Of a DNA stretch of 64,000 nucleotides, positions 5,333 to 58,237 are shown piece by piece (position 1 is the stretch's first letter; each line of letters starts with the position of its first letter). This DNA comes from Firmicutes bacterium HGW-Firmicutes-11 (GTDB taxonomy: Bacteria; Bacillota; Clostridia; Peptostreptococcales; Anaerovoracaceae): the NCBI GenBank assembly GCA_002840285.1, contig PHAE01000004.1:7706-71705 (forward strand), in the 5' to 3' direction. The notes below the pieces were generated by a model. It had not been told where the DNA came from. It did no database searches and worked only from the letters and a program-made list of their open reading frames with translations. The position numbers and the translations under genes were made by a program.

Positions 5333-6622
5333 GTGACGGAAAGGCGAAGTTTGAATCAGAGTAACGATACGACGATCAGCAGAGCGGCAAGAAGTGGCAA
5401 CGGGAGACAGATCCTTTTGCTGCTCGCCTTGGCCGCTGTTGCCGTTTTAGTGGGAATCTTCTCGCTGGGATTGATGGGAGAAGACATCGACCCGGTGAAG
5501 GAACCCATTGATCCGGCAGTTGAACAAGAGGCAGAACCGGATCCGCCGGTGGCCTTGTCTTTTGTTGCGGTCGGAGATGTCATGGTACATCGTTCCCAGA
5601 TCTCCAGCCAGTACGACCCCCAAACCGGCACCTATGATTACACCGACAACTTCCGTTACATCAAACCATACATTCAGGATGCAGATCTGGCCCTGGCCAA
5701 CGTGGAAACGACGTTCGCCGGCGGGACACCGACCGGTTATCCTTCTTTCAATGCGCCGGACGCATTGGCGAATGCTCTGGCTGACACGGGATTCAATGTG
5801 GGACTTATCAGCAACAACCATCTGTATGATAAAGGCCTCGCGGGAATGGATCGAACCATCGGCATCCTTCGGGTCGCTGGAATGAAAACCGCCGGAGCCC
5901 ATCTTCCCGGGGAAAAGAACTATACCCTGGTCGAAGTAAAAGGCGTCAATGTGGGAATCGTTTCCTATACCTATGAGACACCTTCCACCGACGGGCTTAC
6001 AAGGATCAATGGAGTTGTCCTTCCGGAAGCAGTCGCAGAAAGAATCAACAGTTTCTCACACGAGCGCCTGGAAGAGGACCTGAAAAACATCGAAAAAACG
6101 ATCGAAGCCGCCAGAAGCGACGGCGCAGATATCATAATCTGCTATTTCCATTGGGGAGAAGAATACCAAAGATCCCCCAACCTCTGGCAGAGGCGGATCG
6201 CAGAACAGGCGGCAGACATGGGCGCGGACATTGTATTTGCCTCCCATCCCCACGTGCTTCAGAGCGCAGATCGGGTCAAAGGGCCGACAACAGGGAAAGA
6301 GATCCCGGTATTTTTCAGCATGGGCAACTTCCTGTCCAACCAACGCCTGGAGACGCTGAACAACCGATATACTGAGCAGGGGATGATTGCCCGGGTTGAC
6401 CTGAAGTTTGACAAGGAAACGGGAGAAATCTCTGAAATGAACATGAGTGCCATCGGCACCTGGCTCGACAAATACAAGGCTGGAGGAAAAGACTGGTACG
6501 CGATCATTCCTCTGGACGATGCTCTGGAAAACAACGAGACTTTGCGCACATCCGGACACCTGACACGCGCGAAGCAGGCCTACGAGGATATCCGGGAAAC
6601 ACTCGGCACTGTTCTCCGATAA
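5333..6622 (+). CDS. CapA family protein (metallophosphatase-type, poly-gamma-glutamate capsule synthesis-like)
   Basis: GTG start, N-terminal TM helix, then the CapA pattern (FVAVGDVMVHR, LALANVET, ISNNHLYD, FHWGEEY, ASHPHVLQ). Confidence 0.8.
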   Translation: MTERRSLNQSNDTTISRAARSGNGRQILLLLALAAVAVLVGIFSLGLMGEDIDPVKEPIDPAVEQEAEPDPPVALSFVAVGDVMVHRSQISSQYDPQTGTYDYTDNFRYIKPYIQDADLALANVETTFAGGTPTGYPSFNAPDALANALADTGFNVGLISNNHLYDKGLAGMDRTIGILRVAGMKTAGAHLPGEKNYTLVEVKGVNVGIVSYTYETPSTDGLTRINGVVLPEAVAERINSFSHERLEEDLKNIEKTIEAARSDGADIIICYFHWGEEYQRSPNLWQRRIAEQAADMGADIVFASHPHVLQSADRVKGPTTGKEIPVFFSMGNFLSNQRLETLNNRYTEQGMIARVDLKFDKETGEISEMNMSAIGTWLDKYKAGGKDWYAIIPLDDALENNETLRTSGHLTRAKQAYEDIRETLGTVLR

Positions 6623-9367: not shown

Positions 9368-9372
9368 GAAAA

Positions 9373-9532
9373 TCTGTTTCAGGGCGAGGTGAAATTCCTC
9401 ACCGGCGGTAAAGAGCGCAAGCTACGAGTCCGCGAGCCGCAAGGCCGAACCGGTCAGATCCCGGTACCGACGGTTTTGTCAAAGACGCGCATCGTGTCGG
9501 TCGACAAAGAAAGTCCGGATGAAAGAAACAAG
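9373..9532 (+). promoter_or_regulatory. FMN riboswitch (RFN element) aptamer
   Basis: Conserved RFN blocks are visible: AGGGCGAGGTGAAATTCCTCACCGGCGGTAAAG, GTCCGCGAGCC, GGTCAGATCCCGGTACCGACGG, AAAGTCCGGATGAAAGAAACA. The P1 stem CTGTTTC/GAAACA closes the element. It carries an extra hairpin insertion (TTTGTC...GACAAA) before AAAGTCCGG. Confidence 0.85.
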
Positions 9533-9560
9533 GTCCGATTTTTGGATCCATGTATTCTTG

Positions 9561-23263: not shown

Positions 23264-23289
23264 CTCATTTGACAGGAAAGGACATGCGT

Positions 23290-24831
23290 ATGAACCACCA
23301 AAAAGTGATCGTCGCCGATTTCGGCGGACAGTATAACCAGTTGATCGCAAGAAGAGTCCGGGAAGAGAACGTCTATTGTGAGATCGTGTCCTATTCCCGA
23401 TTGATGGAGTCGATCCAGACAGAACGGCCAATGGGCGTGATCCTGACCGGCGGCCCCAACAGCGTTTATCTCGAAGGAGCGCCGTTGTTGCCGGCAGAGT
23501 TCTTCCGGATGGGGATCCCGGTCCTTGGCATTTGTTACGGTGCCCAGCTGATGGCCCACGTCCTTGGCGGCAGCGTCGCAAGCCCGGATAATAAAGAATA
23601 TGGTAGGGTGAAGATCAGCACCGAAGACAGCGAGCTGTATCACGGTATCGGAAGCGACGAGGTCTGCTGGATGAGCCACACCGACTATATCGAGCGTGTA
23701 CCGGAAGGGTTTCGTGTATCGGCGATCACCGAAAACTGTCCCACCGCCTCGATGGAAGACCCGGCGGCAAAGCTCTATGCAGTGCAGTTTCATCCGGAAG
23801 TCCATCACACTCCCTTCGGACAGACGTTGCTCCGCAACTTTCTAACCCGTGTCTGTGGTTGCGTCGGCGACTGGACCATGGACACCTTTGCCCGGGACAA
23901 GATACAGGAAGTCAAAGAAACCGTTGGAGACAAAAAGGTGATCTGCGGTCTTTCCGGCGGAGTGGATTCTTCCGTCGCCTCCGTATTGGTCCACGAAGCC
24001 ATCGGCGACAACCTGGTCTGCATTTTCGTTGACCACGGCCTGCTGCGCAAGGACGAAGGCGATCAAGTCGAAGAGGTTTTCGGTAACCAATTCCAGATGC
24101 GCCTGATCCGAGTCAACGCCAAAGACCGTTTCCTGTCCAAGCTTTCCGGAGTGACCGATCCGGAGAAGAAGCGGAAAATCATCGGAGAAGAATTCATTCG
24201 CGTCTTCGAAGAAGAAGCAGCGAAACTGTACCAATCTCTGGGAGATATCGCATATCTCCTGCAGGGAACCATATATCCTGACGTGGTCGAAAGCGGCGTC
24301 GGAGAATCGGCGATGATCAAGAGCCATCACAACGTGGGTGGCCTGCCGGACGATGTCGACTTCACCTTGCTCGAGCCTCTGCGCCTCCTGTTCAAAGACG
24401 AGGTCCGCAAAGTCGGCGAAGAGCTGGGGATCGCCAGCGAGCTAGTCTGGCGTCAGCCATTTCCCGGCCCCGGACTCGCTGTTCGCTGTTTAGGAGAGAT
24501 CACAGAAGAAAAGCTTGAGATCCTCCGGGAGTCGGATTTCATCTTGAGGGATGAAATCAAAAAAGCCGGCTTAGAGCGAGAGATCTGGCAGTACTTCACC
24601 GTGCTCCCCAATGTCAAAAGCGTCGGCGTCATGGGCGATTACCGTACCTACGACCACACCGTCGGCATCCGCGCTGTCACCTCCGTCGATGGCATGACCG
24701 GCGACTGGGCCCGGATCCCCTTTGAAGTCCTTGAAAAAATAAGTAATCGAATCGTCAACGAAGTCAAAGGCGTAAATCGCATCGTATATGACATCACAAG
24801 TAAGCCACCCAGTACGATTGAGTGGGAGTAA
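23290..24831 (+). CDS. guaA: GMP synthase (glutamine-hydrolysing)
   Basis: GATase domain ([16 protein letters not shown]), ATP-PPase SGGVDSS motif, and conserved C-terminus ...[11 protein letters not shown] 23290 has the best RBS spacing (AGGAAAGGA); the track start is 23269. Confidence 0.95.
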
Positions 24832-25180
24832 TACCCAATTCGGCAAGCCCGAAGGGAGCCGCCGAATTGTTGGTATTACCCCCGTCAGGGTTGGCGAGAC
24901 TTTTATGAGCGAAGTGATATAAAAGTCCGCAACCTACGGCGCAACAGAACCCAATTCGGCAAGCCCGAAGGGAGCCGCCGAATTGTTGGTATTACCCCCG
25001 TCAGGGTTAGCGAGACTTTTAAGCGAAGCGAAAAAAGTCCGCAACCTACGGCGCAACAGAACCCAATTCAGCAATCCCGAAGGGAGCCGCCGAATTGTTG
25101 GTATTACCCCCGTCAGGGTTGGCGAGACTTTTAAGCGAAGCGAAAAAAGTCCGCAACCTACGGCGCAACAGGACCCAATT
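24832..25180 (+). repeat. tandem array of three complete 112-116 bp units plus the first 7 nt of a fourth
   Basis: The word CCCAATT recurs at 24834, 24950, 25062 and 25174 (periods 116, 112, 112). Units are near-identical and each contains several hairpins. The array begins 1 nt after the guaA stop. Confidence 0.9.
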
Positions 25181-25212
25181 TAAAATCTTTTTATAGACAG
25201 GGTACAACGATA

Positions 25213-25532
25213 GTTGTCTCATTGCTTAGCAGTCACCCCCATTGAGACAACAATCCACGGGAACTTGATTGATTTTGGTCCGAGACTCCGCACCTTATGC
25301 CCATCAGCAGTTCTGGCGAAAGTTTAGTTGTCTTTTGGCGGACGGGAAAATAAAATTGAGACAACAAATTCAGTTCAACGGCAGAATGATGTTGTCTTAA
25401 ATCCCTCAAGTCGATGAGAAAAGACAACTAAGCCCGAAAAATGAACCAAAGGAAGTCAGTCATGTGACAAACACCCCTATTTTGAGCAAGAAAGTTGTCT
25501 CTAAGGATCTTAAGACCAAATTGAAAGACAAC
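25213..25532. repeat. cluster of four inverted repeats GTTGTCT-N24/25-AGACAAC
   Basis: GTTGTCT at 25213, 25327, 25391, 25494. AGACAAC at 25245, 25359, 25422, 25526. Orientation strictly alternates, with arm-to-arm offsets of 32, 32, 31 and 32 bp. Confidence 0.8.
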
Positions 25533-25573
25533 TAAGCCGGGCAGAACCTATAGGGCGGATAGCATTAAACATA

Positions 25574-25608
25574 GGGACGGTCTCTTTTTAAGAATCGAGA
25601 ACCGTCCG
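25574..25608. other. hairpin GGACGGTCTC-N12-GAGAACCGTCC (related to the 27198-27253 hairpin)
   Basis: Imperfect 10/11-bp stem followed by GTTTC. Shares the GGGACGGT(T)CTC / GAGAACCGTCC word with the hairpin at 27198-27253. Confidence 0.4.
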
Positions 25609-25628
25609 TTTCATTCAATTGCACATTA

Positions 25629-25669
25629 GAATTTGTAGGTATTACCCCGCCAGGGTTAGCGATAGCTTT
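25629..25669 (+). repeat. degenerate partial copy of the guaA-proximal repeat unit (distal part of the interrupted fourth unit)
   Basis: GAATTTGTAGGTATTACCCCGCCAGGGTTAGCGATAGCTTT aligns to the unit segment GAATTGTTGGTATTACCCCCGTCAGGGTTAGCGAGACTTTT with a few mismatches or indels. Confidence 0.6.
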
Positions 25670-25769
25670 GATGATAAATGATGCTGCTGCAATAGGTGAT
25701 TCCATTGAATGCCAATGACGACGGAGGTATTCGACTCACAAAGGTCTCAAGAAACACACGAGGTGCAAA

Positions 25770-26696
25770 ATGAAACGAAGCGATGAACGAGACATCATGT
25801 TTTCGCGAATGGCAAGAAAGCCAAACACGAAAGAATATGACCAGTATTATTCCCTTCATCCAGAGCTCCTTGAAATTGATGATACACTGCGAGCACAAAT
25901 GCCGATCGGGAAGCCTGGCGACCGCTTTTATGATTCGCTAAAGACCTCTACGGTGGATGCAGCCTTTCAGTTTCTGGATAGCATCAAACCTCTTGTCGAA
26001 GGTCCAACGGCTTCAAAGATTCTCACCACTGGGACTGCGGAAGATTTCACTGCCCACATTAAAAGCATTGCCGAATTGTATGGTGCCAGTGTGACCGGAG
26101 TAGCAAAGAGCGACGAATCCTTTTACTATTCACATCGAGGTCGTACCGATCAGGTATATGGAGATTCTGTCAGCATAGATAATTGGCCCCATACCATCGT
26201 GTTTGCTGTCCCGATGAATGAAGCTATGATCCGAAAGGCTCCAAAAGCAGAAGAGAGTATAGCTGTGACCCAAGGGTATGTTCAGGCTGCTATCGTTGGG
26301 ATGATACTCACATACACAATAAAGGCGTTTGGCTATGAAGCCAGAAACCACATGGATGGGAATTACCTTTGTACTTTGCCACTCGCTGCAAAAGCAGCTG
26401 GTATAGGGGATATTGGGCAGCATGGCCTGATCATAACAGAGGCGCATGGTCCAAGAGTGAGACTTGGCGCGGTATCTACAAATCTACCCCTGGTAAACGA
26501 TCCACCATTTTCAAAGTCAATTGCGCCGATTTGCGAGACATGCCGAAGATGTGTCAGAAACTGTCCATCAAAAGCTATTCCTAATGACATTTTGGCAACG
26601 ATCACACAGGAAAAGTGCTTTGAAAAGTGGTTGGAATACGGAACCGATTGCGGTATTTGTCTTTCGGTGTGCCCGGGATTTGACGAAGGGAAGTGA
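25770..26696 (+). CDS. reductive dehalogenase / epoxyqueuosine reductase (QueG)-family Fe-S protein, cytoplasmic type
   Basis: 308 aa. C-terminal CETCRRCVRNCP and CGICLSVCP ferredoxin-type motifs after an RdhA/QueG-like core. No Tat signal. GC content is visibly lower than in the flanking genes. Confidence 0.65.
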   Translation: MKRSDERDIMFSRMARKPNTKEYDQYYSLHPELLEIDDTLRAQMPIGKPGDRFYDSLKTSTVDAAFQFLDSIKPLVEGPTASKILTTGTAEDFTAHIKSIAELYGASVTGVAKSDESFYYSHRGRTDQVYGDSVSIDNWPHTIVFAVPMNEAMIRKAPKAEESIAVTQGYVQAAIVGMILTYTIKAFGYEARNHMDGNYLCTLPLAAKAAGIGDIGQHGLIITEAHGPRVRLGAVSTNLPLVNDPPFSKSIAPICETCRRCVRNCPSKAIPNDILATITQEKCFEKWLEYGTDCGICLSVCPGFDEGK

Positions 26697-39791: not shown

Positions 39792-39994
39792 GTCGGTTCC
39801 CGTGACCGTCCGGGTCTGTGGTTGCAAGTCCATGCCAGCTACGGGCAAAAGGACCCACGTAAACTGTCCGCATTGCGGCAGCGAGCATGGCGTAGTCTAG
39901 ATATAAGTCCTGACGTCAGCCTTTATGGTTAGATTCAGCGGCAGGCGAGTGTGGGGGCAAAGACCAGGTCAGCCGGACGGTCACGGGAACCGAT
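39792..39994 (+). ncRNA. structured RNA, candidate raiA-motif ncRNA
   Basis: The 20-nt segment CGGTTCCCGTGACCGTCCGG (39794-39813) is perfectly complementary to CCGGACGGTCACGGGAACCG (39973-39992) and encloses about 160 nt of GC-rich non-coding sequence. Location between comFC and hpf (raiA) matches the reported context of raiA-motif RNAs. Strand is assumed from that context. Confidence 0.6.
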
Positions 39995-57811: not shown

Positions 57812-58237
57812 ATGAAGAAGTACAACATCGTCGTAAATGGCGTCGCCTACGAAGTAGAATTGGAAGAAGTCGGTCATTCGACATCAGCGCCGAAAGCAGC
57901 CGCTCCGGTCGCAGCCCCTGCCCCTGCAGCAGCCCCTGCAGCTGCACCTGCCCCTGCAGCCGCTCCAGCCCCTGCCGCCGCTCCAGCCCCTGCCGCCGCT
58001 CCTGCAGCAGCTCCCTCCGCCGGAGCAGTCACCATCGAATCTCCCATGCCAGGAACCATTCTTGATGTCAGAGTCAAGGTCGGCGACGCGGTCACCGAAG
58101 GTCAGGTATTGGTCATGTTGGAAGCGATGAAAATGGAAAATGAGATCATGGCGCCGAGTGCAGGCGTTGTGGATTCCGTACAGGTTACAAAGGGCGCTTC
58201 CGTAAATACCGGTGACGTTTTAGTTTCCCTGAAATAA
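57812..58237 (+). CDS. biotin carboxyl carrier subunit of the decarboxylase
   Basis: 141 aa. Long Ala/Pro linker and C-terminal biotinyl domain with EAMKMENEI. Confidence 0.85.

Follow-up and report, generated by a model that had tools for sequence, protein, structure and literature searches.

Directly behind guaA, the gene encoding GMP synthase, the window (the whole 64-kb stretch of DNA analysed here) carries a tandem array of non-coding units of about 112 bp that can fold into hairpins. What these units are, how they came to pile up at the end of a housekeeping gene and whether their hairpins matter are the questions addressed here. Few integration sites are used as widely by prophages, resistance islands and satellites as the 3′ end of guaA. 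The explanation that we favour, and to which we give about an even chance of being correct, is that the unit is a miniature, att-flanked, gene-less module that was passively moved and multiplied at this hotspot, and that its hairpins, located in the guaA 3′UTR, are under selection.

A tandem array that begins inside guaA

The array was mapped by Tandem Repeats Finder to 24833-25180 (period 112, 3.1 copies, 95% matches, score 625) and is by far the top-scoring repeat of the window. The original prediction of three head-to-tail, near-identical repeats of 112-116 bp was thereby borne out, as were the positions of the word CCCAATT (24834, 24950, 25062 and 25174), but the array starts 2 nt past the guaA stop codon and not one nucleotide past it. 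A 34-nt unit core has three exact occurrences in the window, compared to zero expected in shuffles. The gene itself ends ...ATT GAG TGG GAG TAA, with the stop codon at 24829-24831, and because its last codons make up one strand of the first helix described below, the array in its functional phase begins within guaA. The features of the locus are collected in Table 1.

Table 1 Features of the guaA locus and of the adjoining array, in window coordinates
Feature	Position	Strand	Evidence
guaA (GMP synthase)	23284..24831	+	Pfam GATase + GMP_synt_C
guaA-end att core ATTGAGTGGGAGTAATACCCAATTC	24817..24841	+	foreign/prophage junctions in L023, L026, L118
Unit 1, 116 nt	24833..24948	+	Tandem Repeats Finder; nhmmer 125 bits
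Hairpin A, unit 1	24824..24883	+	RNAalifold, pair counts
Helix P0, unit 1: GGGAGTAATACC (last guaA codons + stop) x GGTATTACCCCC	24824-24835 x 24872-24883	+	RNAalifold
Hairpin P1, unit 1, inside P0: CAATTCGGC x GCCGAATTG	24836-24844 x 24861-24869	+	RNAalifold
Hairpin B, unit 1	24883..24941	+	single-unit folding, RNAalifold, pair counts
Unit 2, 112 nt	24949..25060	+	Tandem Repeats Finder; nhmmer
Unit 3, 112 nt	25061..25172	+	Tandem Repeats Finder; nhmmer; covariance model 100.8 bits
Terminal partial copy ACCCAATT, right half of core	25173..25180	+	sequence reading, Tandem Repeats Finder
Non-coding insert between array and old unit, about 435-450 bp	25181..25615	+	sequence reading, inverted-repeat search
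GTTGTCTY inverted repeats	25213-25251, 25327-25365, 25391-25428, 25494-25532	+	inverted-repeat search
Terminator-like hairpin in insert	about 25575-25607	+	sequence reading
Decayed fourth unit	about 25616..25696	+	nhmmer E = 7e-5 for 25632-25670
Downstream host gene, outside the element (308-aa protein, weak 4Fe-4S matches)	25770..26696	+	

The three copies of the array are 95-99% identical. Unit 1 is set apart by a 4-nt indel and substitutions in the distal loop of its second hairpin, which is where the original prediction, too, had placed most differences between copies, unit 2 by one bulge base and unit 3 by two uncompensated substitutions in hairpin A. Single units fold at −42 to −46 kcal/mol (z = −3.9 to −4.3), and a covariance model scores unit 1 at 142.7 bits for 24820-24957. 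The units do not constitute a coding repeat, in agreement with the first reading of the sequence: 3 does not divide the period, no frame is conserved, and indels between lineages break every frame. ToxI-like RNA repeats of type III toxin-antitoxin systems are short (about 34-45 nt), tandem and located directly upstream of the toxin gene. We rejected this assignment for an array that has a unit of 112 nt and is followed by a gene, for a protein with weak 4Fe-4S matches, only after 590 bp.

An identical entry for the 515-aa GuaA product comes from L001, a contig that was assembled from the same strain's metagenome, and this contig matches the locus exactly except that it carries two units instead of three. 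The copy number of this metagenome-derived assembly is thus ambiguous (3 in the window, 2 in L001), and the difference reflects either copy-number variation or the collapse of a k=141 short-read assembly.

Compensatory changes in two adjacent hairpins

Nine units, which represent about six independent lineages, were aligned, and a consensus was derived with RNAalifold and pair counts. The consensus fold consists of two adjacent long hairpins, A and B. The 5′ strand of hairpin A, GGGAGUAAUACC, comprises the final codons of guaA, its stop codon and four more bases, whereas its 3′ strand, GGUAUUACCCC, is an inverted copy of that stretch; the two form helix P0 around a variable hairpin, P1. The original prediction had likewise extended the first stem of unit 1 by pairing with the end of guaA. 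Hairpin B of unit 1 is built from the pairings CGTC x GGCG, GGGTTGGCG x CGCAACCT and GACTTTT x AAAAGTC and is closed by a variable loop. Its base, CGUC.GGGUUGGCG x CGCAACCU..GRCG, is invariant across all lineages and its distal stem takes four different sequences, every one of which pairs; it also carries conserved bulged bases. The hairpin loops are not conserved among the lineages of the nine-unit alignment. The units fold well (z about −4), but the small second hairpin proposed earlier (CCC-CGTCA-GGG) is without support, as comparative folding pairs CGUC with GGCG at the base of hairpin B.

The consensus contains 42 pairs, and 93.4% of its cells are paired. Two-sided changes occur in 10 pairs, compared to 4.3 ± 1.3 in column shuffles, none of 500 of which reached 10, and slid controls gave at most 5 pairs changed on both sides. 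Stem covariation in homologues had been proposed as a test of a functional RNA, and these ten pairs with compensatory changes are what the alignment returned. In P0, compensation is seen in L026 (AGUAGUACC x GGUACUACC) and in unit 2 of L016 (AGUAACACC x GGUGUUACC), where the helix follows the allele of the stop codon (TAG in L026; AACACC x GGTGTT in unit 2 of L016). Such changes suggest that the two hairpins are under selection. Wobble pairs give mixed evidence as to the strand on which the fold acts: several G-U pairs of hairpin B would read as A-C mismatches on the opposite strand, which favours the guaA-sense (+) strand, whereas a conserved A-C mismatch in P0 becomes a G-U pair on the opposite strand, which favours the − strand.

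A search of Rfam over 24832-25180 gave no match at the gathering threshold nor at E ≤ 10, in line with the initial failure to recognise a riboswitch or sRNA, and a tRNA/tmRNA scan of the window found none. No T-run follows hairpin A or B, and a terminator scan returned trivial sub-stems only; an intrinsic terminator, already discounted in the original prediction for its missing U-tracts, was rejected on the same ground. The scan detected neither a promoter nor a terminator belonging to the unit itself.

Related units in other Clostridia

The genome collection was scanned, with one genome per species, by pattern and then with nhmmer; the collection scans required exact conserved words, and both the diversity and the distribution of the unit are therefore under-sampled. 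Three true homologues were recovered (L003, L016 and L006), the other 17 matches being due to chance or to coding sequence. The Anaerovoracaceae MAG L003 has one unit directly after the guaA stop codon and the Thermotaleaceae MAG L016 has two diverged units in the same place. In Alkalibaculum bacchi (L006), a partial unit lies away from guaA, between jag and mnmE on the opposite strand. As this partial unit carries its own P0 5′ strand, AGTAATACC, at a site that is not guaA, the P0 5′ strand belongs to the module. A metagenome scan added L024, in which a divergent guaA is followed by one unit and then by two extra copies of GACGCAGTAATACCC, and a second locus, L023; a viral-contig scan added L026, and a survey of GuaA relatives added L128, with a diverged unit after guaA (34 bits). 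Altogether, related units occupy the same post-guaA position in five other Clostridia lineages.

Several further matches were discarded. Those in L007 and L013 (Candidatus Limiplasma) and in L014 and L017 (Bacteroidetes) were chance or coding matches, seven viral matches to TGGGAGTAATACCCAAT were chance 17-mers, L124, L126 and L127 showed an unrelated AT-rich hairpin of a high-GC phage, and L121-L123 and L125 proved not to be units. There is one locus per genome in the genome-collection scan and no further copy in the window apart from this locus, by which we rejected a dispersed repeat of the REP/BIME/MITE type; the original prediction had likewise set the array apart from REP/BOX-type elements.

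The GuaA protein of the window is nearest to Anaerovoracaceae proteins (76% to Anaerovorax odorimutans), and the presence of the unit among its relatives is patchy. Among the relatives from which guaA-downstream DNA was retrieved, L003, L023 and L128 have the unit, as does the window, and it is absent after guaA in L114, L116/117, L119, L120 and L129. Other inserts sit right at the guaA stop codon in L115 (a tyrosine integrase), L118 (a prophage) and L130 (an AbiE system), and in most close relatives the site is either empty of units or filled by a different insert. Nor does the conservation of the unit track that of the gene. Between lineages, units are 74-92% identical, compared to 54-76% for the last 300 nt of guaA in the same pairs, the third codon positions of which are only 32-57% identical. 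The unit of L003 is 92% identical to that of L024, whereas the GuaA C-termini of the two are only 58% identical at the amino-acid level. Horizontal spread, or else very strong selection, would account for this pattern better than simple vertical inheritance as part of guaA.

The guaA 3′ end as an attachment site

Three of the loci contain junctions at which the end of guaA, or the unit that elsewhere follows it, meets other DNA. In L026, the place of guaA before the unit is taken by a genuine prophage right end (with genes for a baseplate, a reverse transcriptase, an endolysin and an HTH protein), and prophage and unit are joined at ATTGAATGGGAGTAGTACC. L023 has the unit and the downstream gene of L003, preceded by foreign DNA that carries three GCGTGAAA repeats, and the junction falls at GAGTGGGAG / GAGTGGGAGTAATACC. 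In L118, the GuaA of which is 98.6% identical to that of L003, the gene ends in guaA...GAGTGGGAGTAG (guaA-TAG), followed by a terminator and then by TGGGCACA direct repeats, a layout that reads as a typical attL; the module is absent from the prophage side of this attL. The three junctions place the crossover within GAGTGGGAGTA.

The core defined in this way has 7-bp imperfect inverted arms, GAGTGGG and CCCAATTC, around AGTAATA. Written as GA(A/G)TGGG-AGTAATA-CCCAATTC, with inverted arms and a 7-bp spacer, it looks like the core of a tyrosine recombinase. We also considered P1 as an insertion inside a GTAATACC-CAATTGTT-GGTATTAC core and rejected it, as the arms of P1 are unlike the arms of the core and the real junctions are found farther to the left, in GAGTGGGAGTA. 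Several tyrosine-integrase islands target the 3′ end of guaA (PMC5704250), and GAGTGGGA is the experimentally defined recombination site of the guaA-targeting GIsul2 integrase (PMC9376610). GIsul2 has an internal third att site, through which a sub-element can be excised (PMC9376610), and both cis-mobilizable elements (CIMEs) and site-specific accretion at gene 3′ ends have been described (PMC5704250).

Viral contigs show the same use of the site. Of these, 105 carry guaA, which in most of the 80 fetched loci is at or near the contig end, and the guaA-proximal sequence has the same layout of terminator and arm repeats. A parent element that carries the module turned up neither in the 80 viral loci with guaA nor in phage or plasmid records; BLAST of the unit and of the L026 junction against phage and plasmid records gave no match. 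A single tyrosine-integrase query found no integrase homologue in the window.

Core copies and the layered order of the locus

Every unit begins within the guaA-end core GAGTGGGAGTAATACCCAAT, and its far end lies in a decayed copy of that core. The copies of the guaA end at unit ends are GGGAGTAACACCCAAT and GGGAGTGATACCTCAAT in L016, TAGTAACACCCC in L003, CAGTAATACCCC (twice) in L024 and GGGAGTGATGAAC in L026, and a longer guaA-end remnant, GAATGGAAGTAG, precedes unit 3 of L016. Coding constrains TGGGAGTAA in guaA, whose protein ends ...WE*, and yet this sequence recurs at non-coding unit ends; the unit ends are therefore copies of the gene end and not the reverse. At the internal unit boundaries of the window, the right core half ACCCAATTC has been kept and the left half has diverged to GCGCAACAGA; the internal copies would therefore be poor substrates for an integrase. 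Homologous unequal crossing-over is more likely than an integrase to account for the local amplification of the array.

Downstream of the array, the window contains a non-coding insert and then an old unit. The insert holds four inverted repeats of the form GTTGTCTY-N22-23-RAGACAAC (4 found, 0 expected) and had no BLAST match in phage and plasmid records. The fourth unit retains a short P1, the anti-core GGTATTACCCC (at 25638) and a degenerate hairpin B, and folds poorly (z = +0.6). The order in the window, three fresh units, a 450-bp insert and a decayed unit, has a parallel in L016, where guaA is followed by unit 1, unit 2, about 780 bp (with a terminator and a 158-aa gene), the remnant GAATGGAAGTAG and the decayed unit 3 (47 bits with the covariance model). 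New material therefore enters beside guaA, and older material is pushed away from the gene.

Origin and role of the module

In the explanation that we favour, a module consists of (i) the right core half AGTAATACCCAAT, (ii) the variable hairpin P1, (iii) the inverted core GGTATTACCCC, folding back to pair with the end of guaA, (iv) a second long hairpin with an invariant base and (v) a decayed direct copy of the guaA end. With the right core half at its start and the decayed guaA-end copy at its end, the module is thus bracketed by attL/attR-like repeats, like a miniature CIME. Its traits are those of CIMEs in three respects: direct repeats derived from the integration core are seen in L016, L024 and L003; integrating elements use the attachment site (the junctions of L026, L023 and L118, and the integrase gene after guaA in L115); and the units, at 112-116 bp and with no conserved frame, are without integrase and transfer genes. 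We infer that the module hitchhikes on such elements, which would carry it between genomes by recombining at either of the flanking cores, and that an integrase takes part in its movement and multiplication. Recombination at alternative cores, as larger elements integrate and excise, would be the simplest explanation for multiplication and layering. Newly arriving material would always enter at the guaA-proximal core and shift the older modules and cargo away from the gene. The near-identity of the three copies in the window would reflect a recent origin, through unequal crossing-over or through an integrase that recombined neighbouring cores out of register.

At the RNA level, the module may have a role of its own. 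In L026, in L128 and in the case of unit 3 of L016, the unit is located between the guaA stop codon and a terminator, because of which we take the module to be transcribed as guaA 3′UTR and to be a probable part of the guaA transcript. In the simplest case, the hairpins could then provide guaA, the native 3′ end of which integrations displace time and again, with a replacement 3′-end structure or insulator. Their position in the 3′UTR and the compensatory changes argue that they are more than a mere scar. A pure CIME gives no reason to conserve hairpins, and the compensatory changes call for an additional, putative function as RNA or as single-stranded DNA. Among the candidates offered by the original prediction, a site-specific insertion system, of which the array would be the target or a remnant, is thus the one that is favoured by the junctions at the core, the core copies at unit boundaries, the patchy presence of the unit and a similarity between units that does not follow that of guaA. 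The candidate of a structured 3′UTR or sRNA array holds for the covarying stems and for the place of the unit between stop codon and terminator in several genomes, but no evidence for a processed sRNA array was found; nor was any found for a protein-binding scaffold.

The module could, conversely, belong to the host. tRNA and tmRNA genes serve as integration targets, and elements restore tRNA 3′ halves. By analogy, the unit may be a structured RNA beneficial to the host, either a cis-acting guaA 3′UTR element or a 3′UTR-derived small RNA, that doubles as an integration target; elements would restore or duplicate it as they do tRNA 3′ halves, and the array would be a multi-copy RNA. This would explain the compensatory changes in both hairpins, with P0 tracking the stop-codon allele (TAG in L026; unit 2 of L016), the invariant base of hairpin B, its G-U pairs that would turn into A-C mismatches on the other strand, the place of the unit before an intrinsic terminator in L026, L128 and unit 3 of L016, and a conservation exceeding that of guaA codons. 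We nevertheless regard it as unlikely, as Rfam holds no match even at E ≤ 10, five of the nearest relatives are entirely without the unit, the loops are not conserved, no promoter or terminator of its own was detected, unit 3 of the window has uncompensated stem changes, and the strand evidence is mixed, the conserved A-C mismatch of P0 being a G-U pair on the opposite strand; an RNA role also leaves the core-like direct repeats at unit ends unexplained. At the other extreme, the units would be functionless, neutral scars, namely att-flanking DNA left by decayed elements and later duplicated in tandem by replication slippage or unequal crossing-over. The 95-99% identity of the window copies, which indicates recent duplication, the half-degenerate internal core copies and the visible decay of distal copies (the fourth unit of the window, unit 3 of L016) would all fit. 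Compensatory stem changes, however, are not expected of scars, and neither is a conservation across family-level distances that is better than that of guaA synonymous sites, which makes this the least probable of the explanations considered here, and a very improbable one.

It is also conceivable that the unit recombines as folded single-stranded DNA, as a site or mini-element resembling the attP hairpin of CTX phage or the integron attC. As a single-stranded circle or a transferred single strand, the element would anneal its core to the inverted copy (P0) and thereby rebuild a duplex att site, and one strand exchange with the guaA end would insert the element, leaving the order hybrid core, short spacer, inverted core, rest of the element, hybrid core. 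The mechanism of single-strand integration of CTX phage predicts direct core, spacer, inverted core, remainder and direct core, an order that is also that of the integrated units here, with the 36-nt P1 as the spacer. The compensations in P0 would come naturally to an element that supplies both strands; the conserved P0 mismatch and the conserved bulged bases of hairpin B, the P0 5′ strand that the partial unit of L006 has at a non-guaA site, and the tandem arrays are consistent with this model as well. Against it, the 112-nt module encodes nothing, and rolling-circle, Xer-exploiting or integron machinery was not found nearby, nor an integrase homologue in the window (one query); larger elements, with cargo inserted between hairpin B and the right core, were not observed; and the junctions of L023, L026 and L118 resemble ordinary double-strand att sites of tyrosine integrases with arm repeats. 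An integron attC proper was rejected, as its motifs RYYYAAC and GTTRRRY are absent from the unit consensus or occur there in reverse order. We therefore consider a single-strand site to be decidedly improbable. In a broader formulation, the module would be an autonomous, gene-less mobile hairpin cassette, in which the pairing of GGTATTACCCC with the guaA stop region would specify as well as rebuild the cassette's own attachment site, or an undescribed class of 3′UTR RNA that spreads horizontally, brought along by integrating elements for the repair of the gene in which they insert; we rate this as rather improbable. The same doubt, in equal measure, applies to viewing such a cassette as a counterpart of the integron attC and CTX-phage attP hairpins that targets a protein gene and pairs as single-stranded DNA or RNA.

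Comparison with known systems and significance

The build-up of att-site repeats at the 3′ end of a housekeeping gene is known already, and we read the locus as an unusually well conserved instance of it rather than as a new riboswitch. What is new is a covarying two-hairpin module, the first helix of which uses the stop-codon region, spread across families of Clostridia; no description of it was found in Rfam or in the literature searched. The locus thus presents an unannotated, structurally conserved and horizontally spread module of about 112 bp that piles up in layers inside the guaA site. Should its hairpins have their effect in the mRNA of guaA, a housekeeping gene would be receiving a replacement 3′UTR from the very mobile elements, or remnants of them, that disrupt it; if the hairpins act as folded DNA, hairpin-type recombination sites would extend beyond integrons and Xer-exploiting phages. 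In practical terms, such arrays mark integration hotspots, and in metagenome-assembled genomes they lead to collapsed assemblies and ambiguous copy numbers.

The CIMEs of the Streptococcus ICESt1/ICESt3 family (PMC5704250) resemble the module in being without recombination and transfer genes, in having direct repeats from the 3′ end of the target gene, in occupying a site used by integrating elements and in a layered tandem build-up that pushes older material away from the gene. Known CIMEs, however, are kilobase-scale decayed ICEs or IMEs, whereas the module measures about 112 bp, is without a recognisable parent and has a conserved, covarying two-hairpin fold with an inverted core copy; its cis-mobilization is putative. 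The NIMEs of Neisseria (dRS3/RS arrays; PMC1797815) are likewise arrays of non-coding units (50-150 bp) with variable copy number, in which a short symmetric separator is a prophage integration site and growth by a recombinase has been proposed. They differ by their hundreds of dispersed copies, more than 100 unrelated RS families and an IS110-type phage recombinase; the module forms a single unit family at a single locus per genome, takes the 3′ end of a protein gene as its core and has a conserved secondary structure.

Elements that integrate at the guaA 3′ end (GIsul2, Tn5801-like islands, ATE-1 and SaPI-type islands; PMC9376610, PMC5704250) share with the module the last guaA codons as their target, and the GIsul2 recombination site GAGTGGGA (PMC9376610) is contained in the core found here. 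These islands carry genes and belong to other phyla, and none has been reported to leave or carry a structured module of about 112 bp. The hairpins, in turn, invite comparison with a different class of sites. Integron attC sites and the attP of CTX phage are imperfect hairpins of about 60-140 nt with conserved mismatches or bulges, occur in head-to-tail arrays and have a core that is rebuilt by intrastrand pairing. The module is alike in its hairpin arrays, in its conserved mismatches and bulges and in a core that intrastrand pairing would rebuild. Unlike attC, it is without the R″/R′ consensus, a nearby integron integrase or dif site and cassette ORFs between fresh units, and, unlike either of the two, its observed junctions resemble double-strand att sites.

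Inverted repeats downstream of the guaA array

Flanked on one side by the three-unit array that follows guaA and on the other by the decayed fourth unit, about 320 bp of non-coding DNA carry four inverted repeats of 38-39 bp each, which share the constant geometry GTTGTCTY-N22-23-RAGACAAC, against a chance expectation of zero. Comparison with Rfam and with phage and plasmid records produced no match. One possibility is that these repeats belong to a decayed inserted element, as its iterons or protein-binding sites; another is that they form RNA hairpins.

Features of the window and of guaA loci elsewhere
Sequence	Coordinates	Feature	Rfam score (above gathering score)
Window	9371-9534	FMN riboswitch	91.3 bits
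Window	25213-25532	Four inverted repeats	
Window	39805-39981	raiA RNA motif	136.7 bits
Window	57896-58014	Nested 12-, 18- and 30-bp tandem repeats, within ORF 57812-58237	
L016	~5350-5420 (minus strand)	In-frame stop in guaA	
L026	4310-5407	Reverse transcriptase adjoining a large tail-fibre or Hoc-like protein	
L114	5908-6800	Second guaA-like gene fragment (NAD_synthase + GMP_synt_C)	
L130	2275-4516	Two AbiEi/AbiEii modules	

Elements at the guaA attachment site

Many unrelated prophages on guaA-bearing viral contigs (L034-L113) have a common attL layout 3′ of guaA, in which a strong terminator hairpin comes first and then two direct repeats of 8-9 bp, such as GTGGCATTA..TGGCATTA or GTGATAC..TGATAC; the repeats are presumably integrase arm-type sites. 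In L026, the place of the reverse transcriptase gene in the prophage integrated at the guaA core, beside the tail-fibre or Hoc-like gene, suggests a diversity-generating retroelement.

The close relative L114 (GuaA 83% identical) lacks the unit. Its guaA-like fragment, which lies some 2 kb beyond the first guaA in the downstream direction and is preceded by PNPOx and AzlCD genes, could be a copy of guaA that has been displaced or is carried by an element. In another relative, L130, guaA ends in GAGTAG and is directly followed by the toxin-antitoxin or abortive-infection modules, a pair resembling a small defence island at this guaA-end site. The stop in guaA of L016, a Thermotaleaceae MAG with units after guaA, lies within the N-terminal domain (..SQFMT*ILGG..); the gene is a pseudogene, or else the stop is an error of sequencing or assembly.

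Other features of the window

GCA, GCC and CCT abound in the tandem repeats, which probably encode an Ala/Pro-rich low-complexity linker. The raiA motif and the FMN riboswitch fit a Clostridia/Firmicutes origin.
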